From the sequence record MH243438.1: a stretch of 64,000 bases of DNA. One strand, given 5' to 3'. This document shows, one piece after another, positions 2,225-41,727 of this stretch. This stretch comes from Escherichia phage vB_EcoM_NBG1. A model generated the notes under the pieces. The model saw nothing but the letters and a program-made list of their open reading frames with translations. It was not told where the DNA came from and did no database searches. Position numbers and translations under genes: made by a program. How positions within the stretch are numbered: position 1 is the stretch's first letter; each line of letters begins with the position of its first letter.

Positions 2225-3793
2225 ATGACTACTATCAAAACTAAAGCTCAGCTCGTAGACAAATGGAAAGAACTGCTGGAAGGTGAAGGCCTGCCGGAAA
2301 TCGCTAATAGCAAGCAGGCTATTATCGCTAAAATCTTCGAAAACCAGGAAAAAGATTTCGAAGTATCCCCTGAATATAAAGACGAGAAAATCGCTCAGGC
2401 ATTTGGTTCTTTCTTGACCGAAGCTGAAATTGGTGGTGACCATGGTTATAATGCTCAGAACATCGCAGCGGGTCAAACCTCTGGTGCAGTAACCCAAATT
2501 GGGCCGGCAGTTATGGGTATGGTTCGTCGTGCTATTCCTAATCTGATCGCTTTTGATATTTGTGGTGTTCAGCCTATGAACAGCCCGACCGGTCAGGTAT
2601 TTGCTCTCCGTGCAGTATATGGTAAAGACCCTATCGCTGCTGGCGCTAAAGAAGCTTTCCATCCGATGTATGCTCCAGATGCGATGTTCTCTGGTCAGGG
2701 TGCTGCTAAGAAATTCCCAGCTCTGGCTGCTGACACTACTACTGTTGTAGGTGATATCTATACTCACTTCTTCCAAGAAACTGGTACTGTATATCTGCAA
2801 GCTTCTGCTGTCGTAACACTTGATTCTGGTGCAACTGATGCAGCTAAATTAGATGCAGAAGTTAAGAAACAAATGGAAGCTGGTGCACTGGTAGAAATCG
2901 CTGAAGGTATGGCTACTTCTATCGCTGAACTCCAGGAAGGTTTCAACGGTTCTACCGATAACCCATGGAATGAAATGGGCTTCCGTATCGATAAACAAGT
3001 TATTGAAGCTAAATCTCGCCAGCTGAAAGCTGCTTACTCTATCGAATTAGCACAAGACCTCCGTGCAGTACACGGTATGGATGCTGATGCTGAACTGAGC
3101 GGTATTCTTGCTACTGAAATTATGCTGGAAATCAACCGTGAAGTTGTTGATTGGATTAACTACTCGGCACAGGTTGGTAAATCTGGTATGACCCTGACTC
3201 CGGGTTCTAAAGCTGGTGTATTTGACTTCCAGGACCCGATTGATATCCGTGGTGCTCGTTGGGCCGGTGAAAGCTTTAAATCTCTGTTGTTCCAGATTGA
3301 TAAAGAAGCAGTTGAAATTGCTCGTCAAACCGGTCGTGGTGAAGGTAACTTCATTATCGCTTCCCGTAACGTAGTTAACGTACTGGCTTCAGTTGATACT
3401 GGTATTTCTTACGCTGCACAGGGTCTGGCTTCTGGTTTTAATACCGACACTACTAAGTCTGTATTTGCCGGTGTACTTGGTGGTAAATACCGCGTATACA
3501 TCGACCAGTATGCTAAACAGGATTACTTCACCGTTGGTTACAAAGGCGCTAACGAAATGGATGCAGGTATTTACTATGCTCCTTACGTTGCACTTACCCC
3601 ACTGCGTGGTTCTGATCCTAAGAACTTCCAGCCGGTAATGGGCTTTAAAACTCGTTACGGTATCGGTGTTAACCCGTTTGCTGAAAGTTCCCTGCAGGCT
3701 CCAGGTGCTCGCATCCAGTCCGGTATGCCGTCTATCCTGAACAGCCTTGGTAAGAACGCTTACTTCCGCCGTGTATATGTAAAAGGCATCTAA
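2225..3793 (+). CDS. 23: Major capsid protein gp23
   Basis: 522 aa; matches T4 gp23 in length and sequence character; strong codon bias; terminator hairpin downstream. Confidence 0.97.
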   Translation: MTTIKTKAQLVDKWKELLEGEGLPEIANSKQAIIAKIFENQEKDFEVSPEYKDEKIAQAFGSFLTEAEIGGDHGYNAQNIAAGQTSGAVTQIGPAVMGMVRRAIPNLIAFDICGVQPMNSPTGQVFALRAVYGKDPIAAGAKEAFHPMYAPDAMFSGQGAAKKFPALAADTTTVVGDIYTHFFQETGTVYLQASAVVTLDSGATDAAKLDAEVKKQMEAGALVEIAEGMATSIAELQEGFNGSTDNPWNEMGFRIDKQVIEAKSRQLKAAYSIELAQDLRAVHGMDADAELSGILATEIMLEINREVVDWINYSAQVGKSGMTLTPGSKAGVFDFQDPIDIRGARWAGESFKSLLFQIDKEAVEIARQTGRGEGNFIIASRNVVNVLASVDTGISYAAQGLASGFNTDTTKSVFAGVLGGKYRVYIDQYAKQDYFTVGYKGANEMDAGIYYAPYVALTPLRGSDPKNFQPVMGFKTRYGIGVNPFAESSLQAPGARIQSGMPSILNSLGKNAYFRRVYVKGI

Positions 3794-3817
3794 TCTTAAT
3801 TGATTAAATCTTATTTT

Positions 3818-3846
3818 GGGAGACTTCGGTCTCCCATTTTTGGTTT
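3818..3846 (+). terminator. Rho-independent terminator after gene 23
   Basis: Hairpin GGGAGAC-TTCG-GTCTCCC followed by a T-run. Confidence 0.8.
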
Positions 3847-4115
3847 TATTTCTGTGCAATTTCGATGTAAGTTTTCAAAATATTTTGCCAATTAGGCATA
3901 CCTTCTTGGACATATGCTGGAGAACCGTCTTTGTTTTTGAATGATGCAAGTTTATCAGTGGCCCAATAACCTTTAGCTCGAGCTTCAGAATCAACTTTCA
4001 TCCATACTTTGTTGAAGGCATTACCATTAACTTTTGCACCGTATTTTTCTACTAACTTAACTGCTTCAGCTTCCAGAACTTTTAAAGTATCTCGTAAGAA
4101 ACGTGCTTTAGTCAT
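3846..4115 (-). CDS. Hypothetical early protein in the slot occupied by segD in T4
   Basis: 89 aa ORF on - strand between genes 23 and 24, preceded by a T4-type early promoter at 4144-4176; no GIY-YIG or other motif recognised. Confidence 0.55.
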   Translation of the reverse strand: MTKARFLRDTLKVLEAEAVKLVEKYGAKVNGNAFNKVWMKVDSEARAKGYWATDKLASFKNKDGSPAYVQEGMPNWQNILKTYIEIAQK

Positions 4116-5531: not shown

Positions 5532-6530
5532 TTATGATACTAATTCAATCCATGCAGGACGCAGAACATCTTGCACCATTCGGACTAATTCTTTCTTAAC
5601 AAGATTCGGATTATCGGATGATGTTAATACAATACCTTCACGAGAAGTTTCTTCCAGAATATCTTGAACAGTCAATCCCATCACTTTGCCAAAATCTTTT
5701 GGCGTTACAGTCCCAATCTTAGAAATCACATTATTAACACGATTTAATGTAACATAACAAGCTAGAACATCAAGCAAGTTTTTGTCAATTTCGGTTAATG
5801 GAACCTGAGTTTTAATAGGCTTATCAGACTTTTTCTTTTCACTGAATTTAGAGTTCTTGCACTTAATAGCTACACGAGTACCGTTTGGCAGCCATTTAGG
5901 GAAACAAGGCTTCAGAACATAACCTTCTGCTGTATTATCGCCAATAACATTAGCATCAAATACACAATTATTTGCTTCTACAAGGTCTTCTGACGCAGTA
6001 GCATTATAAGCGGCTAAGACGGAATCAAGGTCATTTGGAATCGTGATAAGAGCATCGAATGTTCCACGACCGAGCATTGGTGCCATTTTAAAACCGAATT
6101 CATTACAGAAATCTTGCATTTCGTAATCGGTCAAATACGTATTATCACCACTTTCTGTATTGATAAGGATATCGAACACATAAAAATCTTTTTCACCGTA
6201 GTCAACACCTTTCTGGATTCCACCACCAGCGAATTCACCGAATACTTGATATGATACGGCTCGAGCTGTGTACATGAATTCCTGAACGGCTTTAATAGCT
6301 TTATCATACTTCTTAAGTACGATTTCATAACCATAAAAATCTTCTGCTGGAAGAATAGGGCCTGTGCGCTTGGCGCATGTGACGTTGTCACGTTCAATTA
6401 TTAACGAGAAGTTAGTCCCATGGATTTTCTCACGTGCTACCCAAACACCAGTAGTCAAACCATTAGTGTAGAGTTTTTCAATAACCTTAGAGTTGTAGTG
6501 GTTTTCAAGACTGCTGTATTTCTTAAACAT
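5532..6530 (-). CDS. rnlB: RNA ligase 2
   Basis: 332 aa; [14 protein letters not shown]...KIHGTNFS (nucleotidyltransferase KxHG motif I) and C-terminus [11 protein letters not shown] match remembered T4 Rnl2. Confidence 0.95.
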
Positions 6531-6649
6531 AAATCACCATTATAAATAATAATATCAAAATAATTAGCAGAGACTCTATCTCCGACCCGATGTTTAATTT
6601 GAATGGATAGAACCTAGATTCATTATACCATCAAAAAATGTAAAGCATA

Positions 6650-7193: not shown

Positions 7194-8324
7194 TTATGGA
7201 TATGTATAGATGATACCAGTTTCCAAAGCAGTTTTATGGATGATGTATCCATTACGTGATTCTTGAACATCAACTTCCGGATAGTCTTTCATCATCTTCT
7301 GAAGAGTGTAACGATGCAGGTAGTATTTACTATCTGGATCTTCAGTTTTCCAATCTTTACCTTCTTCAGTCATTTTTTGGATTTCATCCATAACCCACCA
7401 TCCGCACCAGATGTAAGCTGAAGTACGATGTGGAAGAGGATGAACATAAGGTAATTCACCTTCTGGTTCCGGAGCAACTTTATCAGTTACCTGAACTTGA
7501 CCTTCTGCTGTAATAGTTTTGCTATCGTAATCAGTTGCAGTAATAGTTGCAGTAACTTCAATAGTTTGACTTCCAATAGACGAGGTATCAACGGTATATA
7601 CATTAGTTGACCCTTCTACAGGAGAAGAATCTTTCTTCCATGAATACGCAATTTGCGCTTCTTCTGGAGCATCAGTGACATTAGCGGTAAATGTAGCCGA
7701 AGCATCTTGCTGAACGTTAATAGAAGGAGGAGTCAATGTAACCTGTGGATTCATTGTCTTCTTATTAACCGTTAATGATACTTCATTCGAAGTAACTTCC
7801 TTTGCATCATAATCTGTCGCGGTTACTTGGGCTACACATTTAATTCTTTTTACTCCACTTGCAGTTGGAGTATAGCTAAATGTAGAGTTAGTTTCTCCAC
7901 CAACCTGTGAATCATCTACATACCACTGATACGTAGCAGATGCGCCTGATGGCTGCGAAGCCAAAGCAGCGGTAAATTCAACAGCTGTTCCAATCACTCC
8001 AGCCGCAGGACTAGCAGGAGTTACGGCTAAGGTAGTCGTCTGTGTCTTATTTTGAACTGTGATAGTCGTAGTAATTTCTGCTGTTTCAGCGTCAGTATCA
8101 GGAATAGTATTTGTTGCAACAACTTTAATTGTTTTTGTTCCAGCAGGTCCTTTTAACACGTAATCAAAAGTTTCTGCCGATCCTACTTGAGGAGCATCGT
8201 CTACACTCCATGCATAGGTAATAGTTCCACCTTCAGTTTGACCACTGGGTGCAGCAGTAAACTGCTTAGTCTCATCTATAACTCCAGTAGGTGTTTTAGG
8301 AGTTATATCAACTGTAAAAGCCAT
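7194..8324 (-). CDS. hoc: Highly immunogenic outer capsid protein Hoc
   Basis: 376 aa (same as T4 Hoc); Thr/Ser-rich repeated beta-rich segments consistent with tandem Ig-like domains; terminator hairpin immediately downstream. Confidence 0.9.
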   Translation of the reverse strand: MAFTVDITPKTPTGVIDETKQFTAAPSGQTEGGTITYAWSVDDAPQVGSAETFDYVLKGPAGTKTIKVVATNTIPDTDAETAEITTTITVQNKTQTTTLAVTPASPAAGVIGTAVEFTAALASQPSGASATYQWYVDDSQVGGETNSTFSYTPTASGVKRIKCVAQVTATDYDAKEVTSNEVSLTVNKKTMNPQVTLTPPSINVQQDASATFTANVTDAPEEAQIAYSWKKDSSPVEGSTNVYTVDTSSIGSQTIEVTATITATDYDSKTITAEGQVQVTDKVAPEPEGELPYVHPLPHRTSAYIWCGWWVMDEIQKMTEEGKDWKTEDPDSKYYLHRYTLQKMMKDYPEVDVQESRNGYIIHKTALETGIIYTYP

Positions 8325-28771: not shown

Positions 28772-29080
28772 TTACATAAGAAGCAAACGTTCTACCGGAG
28801 TACCATCAACCGAAATTACTTTATCAAGGCGGAAAGAACGCCACTGACCTAACTTGGTATCGAATGCTCGAACTGATTCACGAGGTTCAGAACGAACTTC
28901 TGTCGATGGGTTACTATTTTCATATTTTACTTCAAGTTCATCACGGGAGGCAAGCATCGTACGAACATCACCATTAGCCTTTTCAAATACAACACAATGA
29001 ACGCCTACAGACAGAATAGTTTTAATACGTTCACGAAGAACCATAGTTTCTTGTTCAGTTAAAATCATATTATTCACCAC
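28772..29080 (-). CDS. Hypothetical protein (31.1 position)
   Basis: 102 aa ORF between cd and gene 31. Confidence 0.6.
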   Translation of the reverse strand: MVNNMILTEQETMVLRERIKTILSVGVHCVVFEKANGDVRTMLASRDELEVKYENSNPSTEVRSEPRESVRAFDTKLGQWRSFRLDKVISVDGTPVERLLLM

Positions 29081-29651
29081 AAAAGTTTCGAATTTGTTCC
29101 CAATTCAGAGAACGAAGATTATTACGAGAGTACTGAATTACTTCAATACCAGCTTGTTTAAGAATGTCTGCCCAATTTTCAGGAGATCTGTCATATAATT
29201 CCGCGTATACAACCTTTTTAATACCTGACTGCGTAATAGCTTTAGTGCAATCAGGACACGGAGAAAGCGTAGTATATAACGTAGCACCTTCAATAGAATT
29301 ACCTTTACGAGCTGCAAACAAAATTGCATTCAGTTCCGCATGGATTTCGTTATTGGCAGACCAGGCACTATGAGCGGCCCGATGTTCTTTAGCCAAAACA
29401 AAATTATCTGCCCGTCCAAATGCTGTAGTGCCTTCTTTATGTCCAGCAATGATGACCGGTCTTGGATTATTCTTCAACCAGCCATTTTCGGATGCATGTT
29501 CGCAACAGTTAACACCACCTGAAGGAGAGCCATTATAACCTGTAGAAATAATGCGTCCATCTTTTTCAATGACGGCACCAACTTTCCATGAACAACATTT
29601 TGATTCTTGAGAAATCAGATATGCAATCTGAAGGTATGTGCTAGCTTTCAT
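29070..29651 (-). CDS. cd: dCMP deaminase
   Basis: 193 aa; zinc motifs HAELNA and SPCPDC; matches remembered T4 Cd in length and sequence. Confidence 0.95.
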   Translation of the reverse strand: MKASTYLQIAYLISQESKCCSWKVGAVIEKDGRIISTGYNGSPSGGVNCCEHASENGWLKNNPRPVIIAGHKEGTTAFGRADNFVLAKEHRAAHSAWSANNEIHAELNAILFAARKGNSIEGATLYTTLSPCPDCTKAITQSGIKKVVYAELYDRSPENWADILKQAGIEVIQYSRNNLRSLNWEQIRNFCGE

Positions 29652-30643
29652 TATTGAACCTTATTAATATAAGTTAACAGCTCTTTAGTTTGTTCCCAAC
29701 TGATGCACGCATCGGTAACGGAAACGCCATAGGACATATTATCAGAAATTTTTTGATTTCCTTCATGTAGGAACGATTCTATCATAATTCCTTTGACCAA
29801 ATCATTAGCTGCTAAATTTTTACCAATACCAATTTGATTGCTATAATGCCCATCAGCGTTTGCATGGCTACAGTCAACCATTACATAATGATTCAGACCT
29901 ACTGCCCTTGCTTTGTTAGAAGCTTCTTGAATATCAGAAGAATGATAGTTCGGGCCGTTGGTCCCGCCACGCAATACGATATGCGTATTCTGATTACCTT
30001 CAGCTTCAACAATGCCTACAGTACCATCGACGTCCATACCCATATACCGATGAGGCCAGGCGGCACTATACATCGCGTCTGTAGCTACTTTAATAGAACC
30101 ATTGGTTGCGTTCTTGAAGCCTACGCACATCGGTAGACCTGAAGCAATTTCACGATGTGTCTGACTTTCAGTCGTACGGGCGCCAATAGCAACCCATGAG
30201 AAAATACCAGAAAGATACTTAATCGTGAACGGGTCTAATACTTCAGTTGCTAATGGAAGTCCCATACGTAGAAGTTTACGACACAATGTTCGTGCAACTA
30301 TAAGACCGTGGTTCATATCAAAACTTCCGTCAAGATATGGATCATTTACAAGACCTTTCCAACCTACGGTAGTTCGAGGCTTTTCAAAATAAACGCGCAT
30401 CACTAACAGAACATTAGGAAGACGAGTTTGAAGTTCAGCCAAACGTTTGCCGTATTCAACAGCAGCAATAGGGTCATGAATTGAACAAGGACCTACAACA
30501 ATAAGTTTGCGTGGGTCTTCACCGTTCATAATCGAATTAACTTGTTCGCGATGAGAAGCCACTTGTGATGCGTAAGCTTCCGACAAAGGAATAATCTCAG
30601 CCAGTTCTTTTGGAGAAATAAGTTTTCTGATGACAGGTAACAT
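29651..30643 (-). CDS. 3-deoxy-D-arabino-heptulosonate-7-phosphate (DAHP) synthase, class I (AroG/F/H-like)
   Basis: 330 aa; VGPCSIHD, VYFEKPRTTVGWKGL, AIGARTTESQTHRE, DCSHAN and SVTDACI line up with catalytic and metal-binding motifs of E. coli AroG/AroH as remembered; stop overlaps cd start. Confidence 0.85.
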   Translation of the reverse strand: MLPVIRKLISPKELAEIIPLSEAYASQVASHREQVNSIMNGEDPRKLIVVGPCSIHDPIAAVEYGKRLAELQTRLPNVLLVMRVYFEKPRTTVGWKGLVNDPYLDGSFDMNHGLIVARTLCRKLLRMGLPLATEVLDPFTIKYLSGIFSWVAIGARTTESQTHREIASGLPMCVGFKNATNGSIKVATDAMYSAAWPHRYMGMDVDGTVGIVEAEGNQNTHIVLRGGTNGPNYHSSDIQEASNKARAVGLNHYVMVDCSHANADGHYSNQIGIGKNLAANDLVKGIMIESFLHEGNQKISDNMSYGVSVTDACISWEQTKELLTYINKVQ

Positions 30644-30763
30644 AACAATCCTTAGGAGATATAAACAGATTCTGATTCAACAATACCTTTAACCGGATTA
30701 GACAGGCTAAGTTGGTAGTGCTCAGATTTATGACCATTCTCGATAGTAATGAGATAGCTCTCA

Positions 30764-31000
30764 TTATAGTGTTCCATATACTCGAGTTGCTTCAACAAGA
30801 CCATCACTGCCTAATTTAAGATTAGTAATTTGGTCACCATCTTTAGGATTAACGATTATGAGAAAAGAACGTGGAGATTCTTGAATAACTCGTAATGTTG
30901 CATCTTGGAAACGTTCAGACACTTTATTGATGAGTGCTTGAGCAAATTCTTTTACTTTAATCTGAAATTCGTGTACTGTAATTGGGTTTTCACTTAGCAT
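30764..31000 (-). CDS. Hypothetical protein
   Basis: 78 aa; early promoter cassette at 31027-31059. Confidence 0.5.
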   Translation of the reverse strand: MLSENPITVHEFQIKVKEFAQALINKVSERFQDATLRVIQESPRSFLIIVNPKDGDQITNLKLGSDGLVEATRVYGTL

Positions 31001-31026
31001 TTCTATTTCCTCATTTGTTGGTAGAG

Positions 31027-31059
31027 TTATAGTATCACAACTCCACCATGTTGTAAACC
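31027..31059 (-). promoter_or_regulatory. T4-type early promoter
   Basis: GTTTAC -35, GTGATACTATAA -10, then conserved ccaacaaATGAGGAAA leader. Confidence 0.6.
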
Positions 31060-31060
31060 A

Positions 31061-31336
31061 TTAAATTGCTTTGCATTCAATTTTTTGTGTACCGAAATTG
31101 ATATCACACTGGATAACTAAATCACCATCAAGATCAAATACCACTATGACGTGCGCAGACCCAGGGAGAAGAGTAATAGCAATAGAATCTACTTGGTCTG
31201 GGAGCAAAGTATTGAGTACATGAGTTAGTTGAGCATGAACTCTGAGTTCGGCTGCATTATCAAGCACTTCAAACATATTATTAGCAATAATCTGACTGAA
31301 GACTACCTTTACAATTTCAGAATAAGTTGGGAACAT
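31061..31336 (-). CDS. Hypothetical protein
   Basis: 91 aa ORF in - strand early block. Confidence 0.45.
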   Translation of the reverse strand: MFPTYSEIVKVVFSQIIANNMFEVLDNAAELRVHAQLTHVLNTLLPDQVDSIAITLLPGSAHVIVVFDLDGDLVIQCDINFGTQKIECKAI

Positions 31337-31343
31337 AATTACC

Positions 31344-31568
31344 TCAGTGTACAGTATTTACTTTAACTCGAACAACAAATCGCTCGGTCGGTTCACCTAC
31401 AGGAACAAACTCTACATGATATTCGCCTTTGTAACGAGTATTCAGATCATTACGAATTCCTGCGAGTTTGTTTATTAATGTAGGACTCATATTAAGTCCC
31501 ACTAGTTCACGAAGCATTTTGTATGCTTCATCTTCGATTTCATGATGTTTATCGTACATAGTTTTCAT
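31344..31568 (-). CDS. Hypothetical protein
   Basis: 74 aa ORF. Confidence 0.45.
   Translation of the reverse strand: MKTMYDKHHEIEDEAYKMLRELVGLNMSPTLINKLAGIRNDLNTRYKGEYHVEFVPVGEPTERFVVRVKVNTVH

Positions 31569-31739: not shown

Positions 31740-31740
<1 letters not shown>
31549..31740 (-). CDS. Hypothetical protein
   Basis: 63 aa ORF coupled to pseT stop. Confidence 0.45.
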
Positions 31741-32826
<1,086 letters not shown>

Positions 32827-40041: not shown

Positions 40042-40902
40042 TTATACCGCCATTTTAGCTTTGATAGCTGGATGTGATTCGTAATTTTTAAGAACGAAAT
40101 CAGAATGTGTCATTGTTCCAGTAACCCAGTCCATTTGGATTTTTGTAGGCCAATTCTCAAAATTACTAGGCCAATTAATTTCAAGAGAACATAACTCTTT
40201 AGGTTCACGTCGAAGAACTTCTTTGCATTGTTCTACATGATTGCTGTAGATATGCGTATTGCCGCCTGAGAACACTAAATCACCTGGGATAAGGTTACAC
40301 ATCTTAGCCACAATATATGTCAAGGCAGCGTACGAGGCAATGTTGAACGGCAGGCCCAAGAAAACATCTACACTGCGTTGATACCATTGTAAATCAAGAT
40401 GACCATTACGCACATTGAACTGATAGAACATATGACAAGGAGGAAGAGCCATTTGGTCAATTTCAGCTGGATTCCAGGCAGAAACAATTTGACGACGATC
40501 GGTTGGTATTTTTTTAATACGGTCGATTGTTTCAACTAATTGGTCTACACCACCAAAATCACGCCATTGCTTACCATAAATAGGACCAAGTTCACCACTA
40601 TGATATCCAAGGTCTTTTGCCTGATTTTCATAGTTGTCGTCCCAAATAGTTTTACCTTGAATAAGACTACCATGAGTACGAATACGCAAATCATTAACAT
40701 TGGTAGAACCAGACATGAACCACAGTAGTTCGGCAATACAAGCTTTCCATGCTAATTTCTTAGTTGTTACTGCAGGGAATCCTTTAGACAGATCCCAACG
40801 TAATTTAGTTCCGAACACGGCAATTGTTCCTGTGCCTGTACGGTCGTCTGTTTCATAACCATTTTCTAGGATATCATTAATCAGGTATTGGTATTGTTTC
40901 AT
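40042..40902 (-). CDS. td: Thymidylate synthase, uninterrupted
   Basis: 286 aa continuous ORF; active-site region ALPPCHMFYQFNV; same length as spliced T4 Td; no intron. Confidence 0.97.
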   Translation of the reverse strand: MKQYQYLINDILENGYETDDRTGTGTIAVFGTKLRWDLSKGFPAVTTKKLAWKACIAELLWFMSGSTNVNDLRIRTHGSLIQGKTIWDDNYENQAKDLGYHSGELGPIYGKQWRDFGGVDQLVETIDRIKKIPTDRRQIVSAWNPAEIDQMALPPCHMFYQFNVRNGHLDLQWYQRSVDVFLGLPFNIASYAALTYIVAKMCNLIPGDLVFSGGNTHIYSNHVEQCKEVLRREPKELCSLEINWPSNFENWPTKIQMDWVTGTMTHSDFVLKNYESHPAIKAKMAV

Positions 40903-41486
40903 TTATATACGCTCTCAGTAATTTCGGTGAGTTCATCGATTCTGTAGTAATGAGATTCTACCATAGAACGTTGAAGCATAATATCCTGGACGAAATCTTT
41001 ATCAAGTTGAACATCTGAATTAACACGACATTTCTTAATGATTTTAGTCATCACGATTTCATCGGCATAAGGCAGTGCTTGTTTTAATAAAGCGGGGCCA
41101 CCAATAACAGATACATCAACATGTTCAGTAGAAAGTTTAAACGGTACATCAGTTGCAGGGCTAAACAGGTTAATTTCACCGCCCATTAGCAAGGTAATAA
41201 ATTCAGATTGGGTGATATAGAACCGTGCAAGTTCATCAGTTTTAGTCCTAGGCAGTTTTCTGGCCATATCAGTGACAACCACATGAGTACGATCTGGGAG
41301 TAGACGAGGTAATGATGCAAAAGTCTTAGCACCCATAACCATTACAGTGTTTTTAGTGCGAGCAACAAAGTTACTCATATCTTGTTTGATATGCTTCCAT
41401 GGAAGTCCATCACCTAATCCAAAAGCATATTCCAGTTTATCATCAACTGTTTTAGACGGTGCGCATGCGAATACTAATTTAAGCAT
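40899..41486 (-). CDS. frd: Dihydrofolate reductase
   Basis: 195 aa from ATG 41486; MLKLVFACAPSKTVDD...AFGLGDGLPW matches remembered T4 Frd; the track ORF is extended upstream. Confidence 0.92.
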   Translation of the reverse strand: MLKLVFACAPSKTVDDKLEYAFGLGDGLPWKHIKQDMSNFVARTKNTVMVMGAKTFASLPRLLPDRTHVVVTDMARKLPRTKTDELARFYITQSEFITLLMGGEINLFSPATDVPFKLSTEHVDVSVIGGPALLKQALPYADEIVMTKIIKKCRVNSDVQLDKDFVQDIMLQRSMVESHYYRIDELTEITESVYK

Positions 41487-41727
41487 TTTTAAGTCCTTTA
41501 ATAACTTTTTGGATTTGTGATTTAGAAGAAACCAAATCAGTCTGGATTTGACAACCATCGGTAGAGTCAAATACTATAACACAAACGCGAGGTTTTGTTG
41601 TGTATCGCCCAGACAAATCAAATGCGTCACCAATGAATTCGGCCAAATCCGGATGGTCTAAATTAACTGAAGTATAAACTTCATATCCGACATCAGCGCC
41701 TTGAGAGTATTCAACAACAACATTCAT
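41479..41727 (-). CDS. Hypothetical protein (frd.1 position)
   Basis: 82 aa ORF coupled to frd. Confidence 0.5.
   Translation of the reverse strand: MNVVVEYSQGADVGYEVYTSVNLDHPDLAEFIGDAFDLSGRYTTKPRVCVIVFDSTDGCQIQTDLVSSKSQIQKVIKGLKNA

Follow-up and report, generated by a model that had tools for sequence, protein, structure and literature searches.

Escherichia phage vB_EcoM_NBG1 carries, in a 64,000-nucleotide (nt) stretch of sequence record MH243438.1 (hereafter the window), a gene for a type I-alpha DAHP (3-deoxy-D-arabinoheptulosonate 7-phosphate) synthase, an enzyme that acts at the entry of the shikimate pathway. Its identity as a DAHP synthase is practically certain. On balance we lean towards the view that it represents a distinct and ancient I-alpha sub-lineage of T4-like phages of Enterobacterales, naturally deregulated by seven substitutions confined to the inhibitor pocket and by loss of the N-terminal lid, that it would force the shikimate pathway open, and that its gene cassette was exchanged between phage genera at the cd.2/cd junction. 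The gene had been picked out in an original prediction made from the sequence alone; the analysis confirmed what that prediction had observed and partly supported how it had been interpreted. The gene and its ribosome-binding site were placed as follows.

29651..30643, minus strand: type I-alpha DAHP synthase (3-deoxy-7-phosphoheptulonate synthase) gene of the phage clade, 330 amino acids (aa), recognised by its open reading frame (ORF), profile matches, structure match and 14 of 14 catalytic residues.

30649..30653, minus strand: AAGGA resembling a Shine-Dalgarno site, 5 nt upstream of the ATG of the DAHP synthase gene, the minus strand reading TCCTAAGGATTGTT-ATG.

The 330-aa ORF exists as originally described, and every one of the motifs cited for it (GPCSIHD, YFEKPRTTVGWKGL, IGARTTESQ, DCSHAN and TDAC) was found in the protein. 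Its start is fixed by an in-frame stop 11 codons upstream of the ATG, with no start codon between the two, which rules out a longer N-terminus hidden by a mis-called start. The protein matched PF00793 with E = 5.2e-75 (252 bits against a cutoff of 25.5), TIGR00034 (aroFGH) with 428.5 bits (cutoff 173.2) and PRK12755 with 455.9 bits (cutoff 343). The best match in PDB was the Escherichia coli AroF structure 6agm (E = 4e-105 over residues 8-327), and the fold is certain because the protein shares 51% identity with solved structures. NCBIfam returned DAHP synthase models exclusively; the AroG equivalog cutoff (364 vs 568) and the AroH subfamily cutoff (387 vs 463) were both missed. The class I (I-alpha) assignment of the original prediction is thus upheld by the profile matches and by a complete set of catalytic residues.

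For the active site, the phage protein was aligned with AroG, AroF and AroH taken from E. coli K-12. All 14 residues of AroG that contact the metal, phosphoenolpyruvate (PEP) and erythrose-4-phosphate (E4P) are kept. The metal ligands Cys61, His268, Glu302 and Asp326 of AroG correspond to C53, H260, E289 and D311 of the phage protein and are invariant in all 130 aligned sequences, and the ten PEP and E4P residues (R92, K97, P98, R99, T100, G163, A164, R165, K186 and R234) are identical in the phage protein and in every phage homologue. A check of the catalytic residues had been proposed with the original prediction, and none was missing upon alignment. The phage DAHP synthase is therefore predicted to be catalytically competent, converting PEP and E4P to DAHP and inorganic phosphate. 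A changed substrate specificity, such as a KDO8P (3-deoxy-D-manno-octulosonate 8-phosphate) synthase-like use of arabinose-5-phosphate, or a catalytically dead moonlighting protein, is highly improbable. PF00793 does cover KDO8P synthases as well, and E. coli DAHP synthase accepts other aldose phosphates weakly, but every phage copy has the same ligands for PEP, the metal and the E4P phosphate as AroG, KPRT motif included, and the clade-fixed differences described below avoid the active site entirely. Membership of the KDO8P synthase branch of PF00793 found no support, as all NCBIfam matches were to DAHP synthase models and the KPRT motif is present.

The inhibitor site differs from that of the host enzymes at the following residues.

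AroG P150: phage I141.

AroG Q151: phage K142.

AroG D155: phage G146.

AroG S180: phage P171.

AroG F209: phage Y200.

The original prediction had pointed to a segment DPFTIKY in the phage protein against DMITPQY in AroG, and this difference is real. Of the effector-site changes read from it, those at the P150 and Q151 equivalents (to I and K) stand, whereas the substitution at M147 is uninformative, Pro being both the bacterial consensus and the AroF residue. The intact inhibitor-binding residues expected of a feedback-regulated isozyme were not found in the window protein, which has I141, K142, P171, Y200 and G146 and is missing the N-terminal residues.

We compared 18 non-redundant phage sequences with 81 non-redundant bacterial sequences over 321 aligned positions. 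Fixed differences between the two groups occurred at only seven positions: P150I, Q151K, D155G, L156I, S180P, F209Y and T223A (AroG numbering). All seven lie within or beside the inhibitor pocket and none at the active site; five of them coincide with one of the 11 positions that the literature names for the inhibitor site (hypergeometric P = 3.4e-7). The phage pocket changes were not found in about 95 bacterial homologues. Of the two I-alpha decorations that make up the inhibitor site, an N-terminal extension and the beta6a/beta6b insertion, the insertion aligned without gaps at AroG 209-224.

The N-terminus of the phage protein is also altered. It starts at the equivalent of AroG I10 or AroF I11, without the segment that bears AroG D6/D7 and AroF N8, so that the N-terminal extension is 8-9 residues shorter than in AroG, AroF and AroH and shorter than in all bacterial homologues examined. 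Before the column of AroG P19, all members of the phage clade have 8-12 residues, compared with 16-53 in the approximately 95 bacterial homologues. We take AroG D6 and D7 to contact bound Phe, and N8K or deletion of I11 in AroF presumably confers resistance to Tyr.

Changes at several of these positions are known to abolish or weaken feedback inhibition. AroG P150L and D146N are completely Phe-resistant, and S180F, L175D, L179A, F209A/S and V221A are resistant (PMC9529685). Q151 (AroF Q152) and S180 (S181) contact the main chain of the inhibitor, D155 forms a stabilising salt bridge, and Q159A of Corynebacterium glutamicum, equivalent to AroG Q151, gives feedback resistance (PMC9529685). In yeast, ARO4 Q166K is feedback-resistant (PMC5879953). 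ARO4 Q166 would correspond to AroG Q151, given the constant +15 offset that the PDB alignments imply, and the phage enzymes would then carry the identical Gln-to-Lys change. Like the engineered AroG alleles (P150L, S180F, F209A/S, D146N), the phage enzyme is altered at P150, S180 and F209, in this case naturally. Those alleles each alter one residue of an otherwise full-length protein, whereas in the phage clade seven fixed changes go together with an N-terminal truncation and D146 is kept; resistance of the phage enzyme is predicted from residues. With the equivalents of P150, Q151, D155, S180 and F209 changed to I, K, G, P and Y throughout the clade and the D6/D7 segment gone, the earlier hint of feedback insensitivity looks stronger, and the phage DAHP synthase is probably insensitive to feedback by Phe, Tyr and Trp.

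An ordinary feedback-sensitive AroF-like isozyme, merely adding enzyme dosage in infection, is unlikely. AroF is both the best PDB match and the best paralogue match, with 51% identity over its full length, and the two proteins have in common the (beta/alpha)8 barrel (PF00793/TIGR00034; AroF structures 6agm and 6agl) and the residues for metal, PEP and E4P. Parts of the pocket look like AroF too, namely P at AroG position 147, G at AroG position 211 and a D146 that is kept, and several GenBank records label the protein 'Tyr-sensitive', 'aroF' or 'AroG'. Set against this likeness, the phage protein is 26 residues shorter than AroF (330 vs 356 aa) and lacks the first ~9 residues, including the N8 equivalent, as well as the counterparts of AroG D6/D7. 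AroF P151, Q152, D156, S181 and F210 are I, K, G, P and Y in the phage protein, so that both inhibitor main-chain binders (AroG Q151 and S180) are replaced and the position at which P150L is fully resistant holds I. The missed AroG and AroH cutoffs speak against an ordinary isozyme as well, as do the fixation of the changes in all phage copies and their absence from the bacterial homologues. The effector-specific names in the records ('Tyr-sensitive', 'AroG') appear unsupported by the inhibitor-site residues.

Within the phage clade, conservation of the pocket (0.89) exceeds the protein average (0.74), and because of this the inhibitor pocket appears to be remodelled and maintained rather than decaying. 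The same conservation would be expected if the pocket had been re-regulated, becoming a site for a new small molecule (a phage-specific or nucleotide-related metabolite) or for a protein partner. The new residues I, K, G, I, P, Y and A vary little or not at all within a clade whose divergence reaches ~45%, and the gained Lys and Tyr hydroxyl provide new polar groups. We nevertheless consider re-regulation distinctly unlikely: the segment is also highly conserved in bacteria (0.82), which may come from its structural part in the dimer interface, a closed ligand pocket is hard to square with the lost N-terminal lid, and no candidate ligand is known. A stronger version of the deregulated sub-lineage that we favour would have the conserved new pocket bind a phage-specific effector.

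The phage enzymes stand apart from those of their hosts. The window protein is 51, 48 and 44% identical to E. coli AroF, AroG and AroH, respectively. In a search of 5.8 billion proteins, all matches at 56% identity or above were of the phage type (319-343 aa), and those on long contigs lay on contigs of phage-genome size, up to 178 kb. A plateau at 50-55% identity consisted of very diverse bacteria, including Planctomycetota, Pontiella, Pseudomonadales and enterobacterial AroF. In a neighbour-joining tree (130 sequences, 324 columns, 200 bootstraps) the phage sequences were monophyletic in 188 of 200 bootstraps; the maximum distance within the phage clade was 0.71 and the smallest distance from a phage to a bacterial sequence 0.65. 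The window gene has a GC content of 41% and a GC content at third codon positions (GC3) of 30%, compared with 52-53% and 50-57% for aroF, aroG and aroH (GC3 of aroF, 50%), and the GC of each orthologue follows that of its own phage, as in PM2 (32.5%). Recent capture from the host is ruled out by the 44-51% identity to the host isozymes, the lack of any bacterial match above ~55%, the monophyly and the phage-like GC3. The term 'host-like' in the original prediction was thus an overstatement, and the phylogeny proposed there for finding a donor gave a separate phage clade in place of a host lineage, with no bacterial relative above ~55% identity. On these relationships the phage enzymes appear to be an old, phage-restricted lineage of DAHP synthase.

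Two further homologues were noted. The metagenomic contig ENA k119_692268 encodes an apparently intermediate DAHP synthase (2517-3515, stretch numbering; protein P0022), with a T4-type gene (Phage_T4_Y05Q) nearby. At the AroG positions Q151 and S180 this protein shows K and P, at P150 it still has P, and its N-terminus is 12 residues long; its gene is not next to cd. It may be an early branch of the phage clade; bootstrap support for the clade falls from 188 to 85 of 200 when it is omitted. Aeromonas phage HJ05 (OQ594355.1, 79 kb), which is not T4-like in appearance, judged by its size and taxonomy line only, encodes a 387-aa homologue (2899-4062, stretch numbering; 38% identity) under the label hypothetical. 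This homologue keeps the catalytic residues; its inhibitor site is altered too, with His at AroG Q151 and Pro at S180, but it has a long N-terminus. It is probably an independent acquisition.

Among T4-like phages the gene is widespread. Megablast of window positions 29000-31100 found 139 phage records covering at least 80% of the region, most matching records being 95-99% identical; almost all of the covering records were Mosigvirus (JS09, HX01, APCEc01, F2, FP43 and others). By tblastn the protein was present in 212 phage records, 139 of them at 95% identity or above and the remainder at 58-77%, the latter in phages of Klebsiella, Serratia, Erwinia, Enterobacter, Edwardsiella and Proteus. 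In Mosigvirus the identity is 98-100% and in the other genera 58-77%, with Kanagawavirus the closest of these (77%). Taking as a marker the arabinose-5-phosphate isomerase carried by RB69 and the other Mosigvirus records listed, about nine in ten Mosigvirus records would have the gene (139 vs 151 for the marker, each at 95% identity or above). In every case inspected, covering Mosigvirus, five further genera and an uncultured T4-like contig, the gene occupied the slot from pseT/cd.2 to cd, and the orthologues share the short N-terminus and the pocket signature. Outside Mosigvirus, the same slot was occupied in the following.

Marfa (Marfavirus), CHI14 (Winklervirus) and PM2 (Bragavirus): same-slot orthologues.

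PEi26 and Entb_45 (Kanagawavirus), EcS1 (Kagamiyamavirus) and an uncultured T4-like contig: same-slot orthologues.

The original prediction had noted that the gene is absent from T4, and T4 indeed carries cd.1 there, with no DAHP synthase. The type phage of Mosigvirus, RB69, also lacks the gene, its cd.2 being followed directly by cd. The original prediction had named a routine place in the cd region of T4-like genomes as something that would refute it, and such a place was found: the gene is annotated there as a regular component in about 139 Mosigvirus records and in at least five other T4-like genera. It is an already known, database-annotated accessory gene of T4-like phages. The labels it bears are inconsistent ('Tyr-sensitive', 'aroF', 'AroG', 'aldolase', 'DHAP synthase' and 'hypothetical protein'), and it is left uncalled in HX01 (JX536493). 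As an intact, conserved and compositionally ameliorated cellular gene in bona fide phage genomes, it qualifies as an auxiliary metabolic gene.

The boundaries of the cassette could be read by comparison with RB69. RB69 aligned to the window at 28915-29654 and 30749-31400, and exactly the interval 29655-30748 (~1.1 kb) is absent from it; the two alignment pieces share 19 nt of RB69 (8237-8255, stretch numbering). The features at the boundaries are listed below.

29636..29654, minus strand: right copy of a 19-nt imperfect direct repeat, ATAATGAAAGCTAGCACAT (minus strand), at the RB69 alignment break.

30749..30767, minus strand: left copy of the repeat, ATAATGAGAGCTATCTCAT (minus strand), at the RB69 alignment break.

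30652..30774, minus strand: relic C-terminal fragment of a second cd.2-type (DUF7320) gene, a 40-codon ORF matching PF24005 at profile positions 44-76 of 78 (E = 1.3e-6).

30764..31000, minus strand: full-length resident cd.2 homologue, DUF7320, 78 aa, matching PF24005 at profile positions 1-77 of 78 (E = 1.5e-35) and aligning with the cd.2 of RB69 and T4.

The repeat copies agree at 16 of 19 bases, ATAATGA(A/G)AGCTA... being the TAATG junction followed by the start of cd, and repeats that bracket the segment fit its insertion or deletion by recombination between them. The relic occupies the 105-nt spacer that precedes the DAHP synthase gene, and it belongs with the cassette missing from RB69. 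It resembles the C-termini of Kanagawavirus cd.2 (19-20 identities, score 61-71) more than the cd.2 homologue of the window itself (10/33, score 30), and the 105-nt spacer with the relic upstream was found in Mosigvirus only. On the simplest reading, Mosigvirus would have received a cassette consisting of the 3' end of cd.2 and the DAHP synthase gene from a T4-type phage akin to Kanagawavirus, through imprecise recombination where cd.2 meets cd. In RB69 the site would be either still empty or emptied later by deletion between the 19-nt repeats.

The surroundings of the gene bear on when it is expressed. On the minus strand the order is pseT (31740-32639), small cd.4/cd.3-type genes, the cd.2 homologue, the DAHP synthase gene, cd, a 31.1-type WYL_2 protein and gp31; td (40042-40902) and frd (40899-41570) lie ~10 kb from the DAHP synthase gene. 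The features nearest to it are as follows.

29070..29651, minus strand: cd, dCMP deaminase, 193 aa, directly downstream (PF00383, E = 3e-26; annotated as cd in relatives).

29649..29653, minus strand: TAATG overlap, with one base common to the DAHP synthase stop and the cd start, read in the sequence; the same arrangement is annotated in SA79RD and 308Ecol101PP.

31029..31057, minus strand: site resembling a T4 early promoter, lying between the homologues of cd.3 and cd.2; it reads TTTACA-17-TACTAT, extended by TG, and is recognised only by its match to the consensus.

The stop and start shared with cd, which the original prediction had described, are present: in the minus-strand sequence ...CAATAATGAAAGCT..., the TAA spans 29653-29651 and the ATG of cd spans 29651-29649. 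This overlap is consistent with translational coupling of the DAHP synthase and cd. In SA79RD the homologous site bears the annotation of a T4-early-type promoter, and Pe133295 of T4 occupies the matching place; the site at 31029..31057 is a probable start of a transcript with cd.2, the DAHP synthase gene and cd, and early co-expression of the enzyme with cd is plausible. Early production alongside nucleotide-metabolism enzymes is most likely because the gene lies in the prereplicative pseT–cd block, has an early-type promoter upstream and has a stop overlapping the start of cd.

Taken as a whole, we regard it as rather probable, from features read in the DNA and protein, that the gene provides an early, catalytically normal and probably feedback-insensitive DAHP synthase that holds the shikimate pathway open in infection. 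The enzyme would be made early, alongside nucleotide-metabolism enzymes, with its active site kept, its allosteric pocket rebuilt and the first 8-9 N-terminal residues, which close the pocket across the dimer, lost. Inhibition by Phe, Tyr or Trp would probably be absent, and transcription by the phage would let the gene escape both TyrR/TrpR repression and host shut-off. Carbon could then keep entering the shikimate pathway irrespective of the aromatic amino-acid status of the host. This would sustain the chorismate-derived supply, mainly of aromatic amino acids for phage protein and possibly of para-aminobenzoic acid/folate and quinones, with the other six shikimate enzymes to come from the host. 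The folate and thymidylate rationale of the original prediction is speculation; nothing in the sequence favours it over a supply of aromatic amino acids.

Several points weigh against this interpretation. The promoter and terminator scan was overall not above shuffles (23 sites vs 20.5 expected), and only the site with an annotated homologue was kept. RB69 and T4, which lack the gene, grow well, and any benefit must therefore be conditional. The window holds no other shikimate-pathway gene, and flux past DAHP would rely on host enzymes that are no longer renewed. The new pocket residues are strongly conserved and not drifting, which fits a retuned site (with a new ligand or a purely structural role) equally well. 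In C. glutamicum AroF, single mutants corresponding to D155A, Q151A and S180F could not be expressed, were unstable or had weak activity (PMC9529685); the combined phage changes therefore need mutual compensation, and activity is not to be assumed from them. In the full-text literature, with subscription journals outside its coverage, no study dealing with activity, regulation or phenotype came to light for any DAHP synthase of a T4-like phage. The only related mention found was K01626 among the auxiliary metabolic genes in one virome paper.

The enzyme could also be active but, speculatively, have been selected as a substrate sink and not for its product: taking away E4P (and PEP) irreversibly would pull transketolase towards pentose phosphates (fructose-6-phosphate + glyceraldehyde-3-phosphate to xylulose-5-phosphate + E4P), and this would feed nucleotide synthesis and the arabinose-5-phosphate branch for DNA modification. 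The gene does lie within a nucleotide-metabolism block (cd, pseT, nrdAB, td, frd), an unregulated enzyme would be effective as a sink, and many carriers also encode arabinose-5-phosphate isomerase, which in these phages draws on ribulose-5-phosphate (PMC13326640). This isomerase, part of the arabinosyl-cytosine modification module, was found by tblastn in 275 phage records, the RB69 copy lying at 5964-6599 (stretch numbering). Its co-occurrence with the DAHP synthase is loose, however. RB69 has the isomerase and the DNA modification without the DAHP synthase; the DAHP synthase occurs in about 25 phage records of Klebsiella, a name outside the ten most frequent organism names for the isomerase; and the isomerase occurs in 57 Acinetobacter and 6 Yersinia phage records, where DAHP synthase matches are few or none (Acinetobacter, 4; Yersinia, outside the ten most frequent organism names). 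Strict coupling to the arabinosyl DNA modification of Mosigvirus is ruled out by RB69, which has the module and no DAHP synthase gene, and by the only partly overlapping distributions in Klebsiella, Acinetobacter and Yersinia phages. A sink would moreover spend one PEP per E4P and remove E4P that the same pathway would otherwise turn into pentoses. We consider a sink quite improbable.

If the shikimate pathway is indeed held open by a deregulated enzyme, that enzyme would act where the DAHP synthases of the host are repressed and inhibited, for example in the amino-acid-rich gut. Among natural I-alpha enzymes it would, to our knowledge, be the first that is insensitive to feedback. That phages have the gene matters little; its regulatory signature could matter. 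Lytic coliphages would then target the single control valve of aromatic biosynthesis, an amino-acid-pathway example would be added to the auxiliary metabolic genes of enterobacterial phages, and metabolic engineers would gain an evolution-tested, multi-site feedback-resistant scaffold. The cyanophage auxiliary metabolic genes talC, zwf, gnd and CP12 rewire the central metabolism of the host. The T4-like DAHP synthase resembles them as a metabolic enzyme under purifying selection in a lytic phage, at a pathway control point and probably expressed with nucleotide-metabolism genes; unlike them, it acts at the entry of the shikimate pathway, in enterobacterial T4-like phages, and its benefit is putative. 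RB69 and T4 are natural null comparators, and their easy genetics makes the hypothesis directly testable.

Minor observations concerned the annotation of neighbouring genes. The mechanical ORF start of the 31.1-type WYL_2 gene (28772-29080, minus strand) is a GTG that overlaps the 3' end of cd, and that of frd (40899-41570, minus strand) is a TTG, with the DHFR domain starting only from residue 48; both are probably too far upstream, and annotated relatives have later ATG starts for the two genes. In RB69 (NC_004928), cd is annotated as 169 aa (7743-8252, stretch numbering), compared with 193 aa in the window, despite 95% DNA identity throughout cd, and the 3' end of the RB69 cd annotation may need checking.

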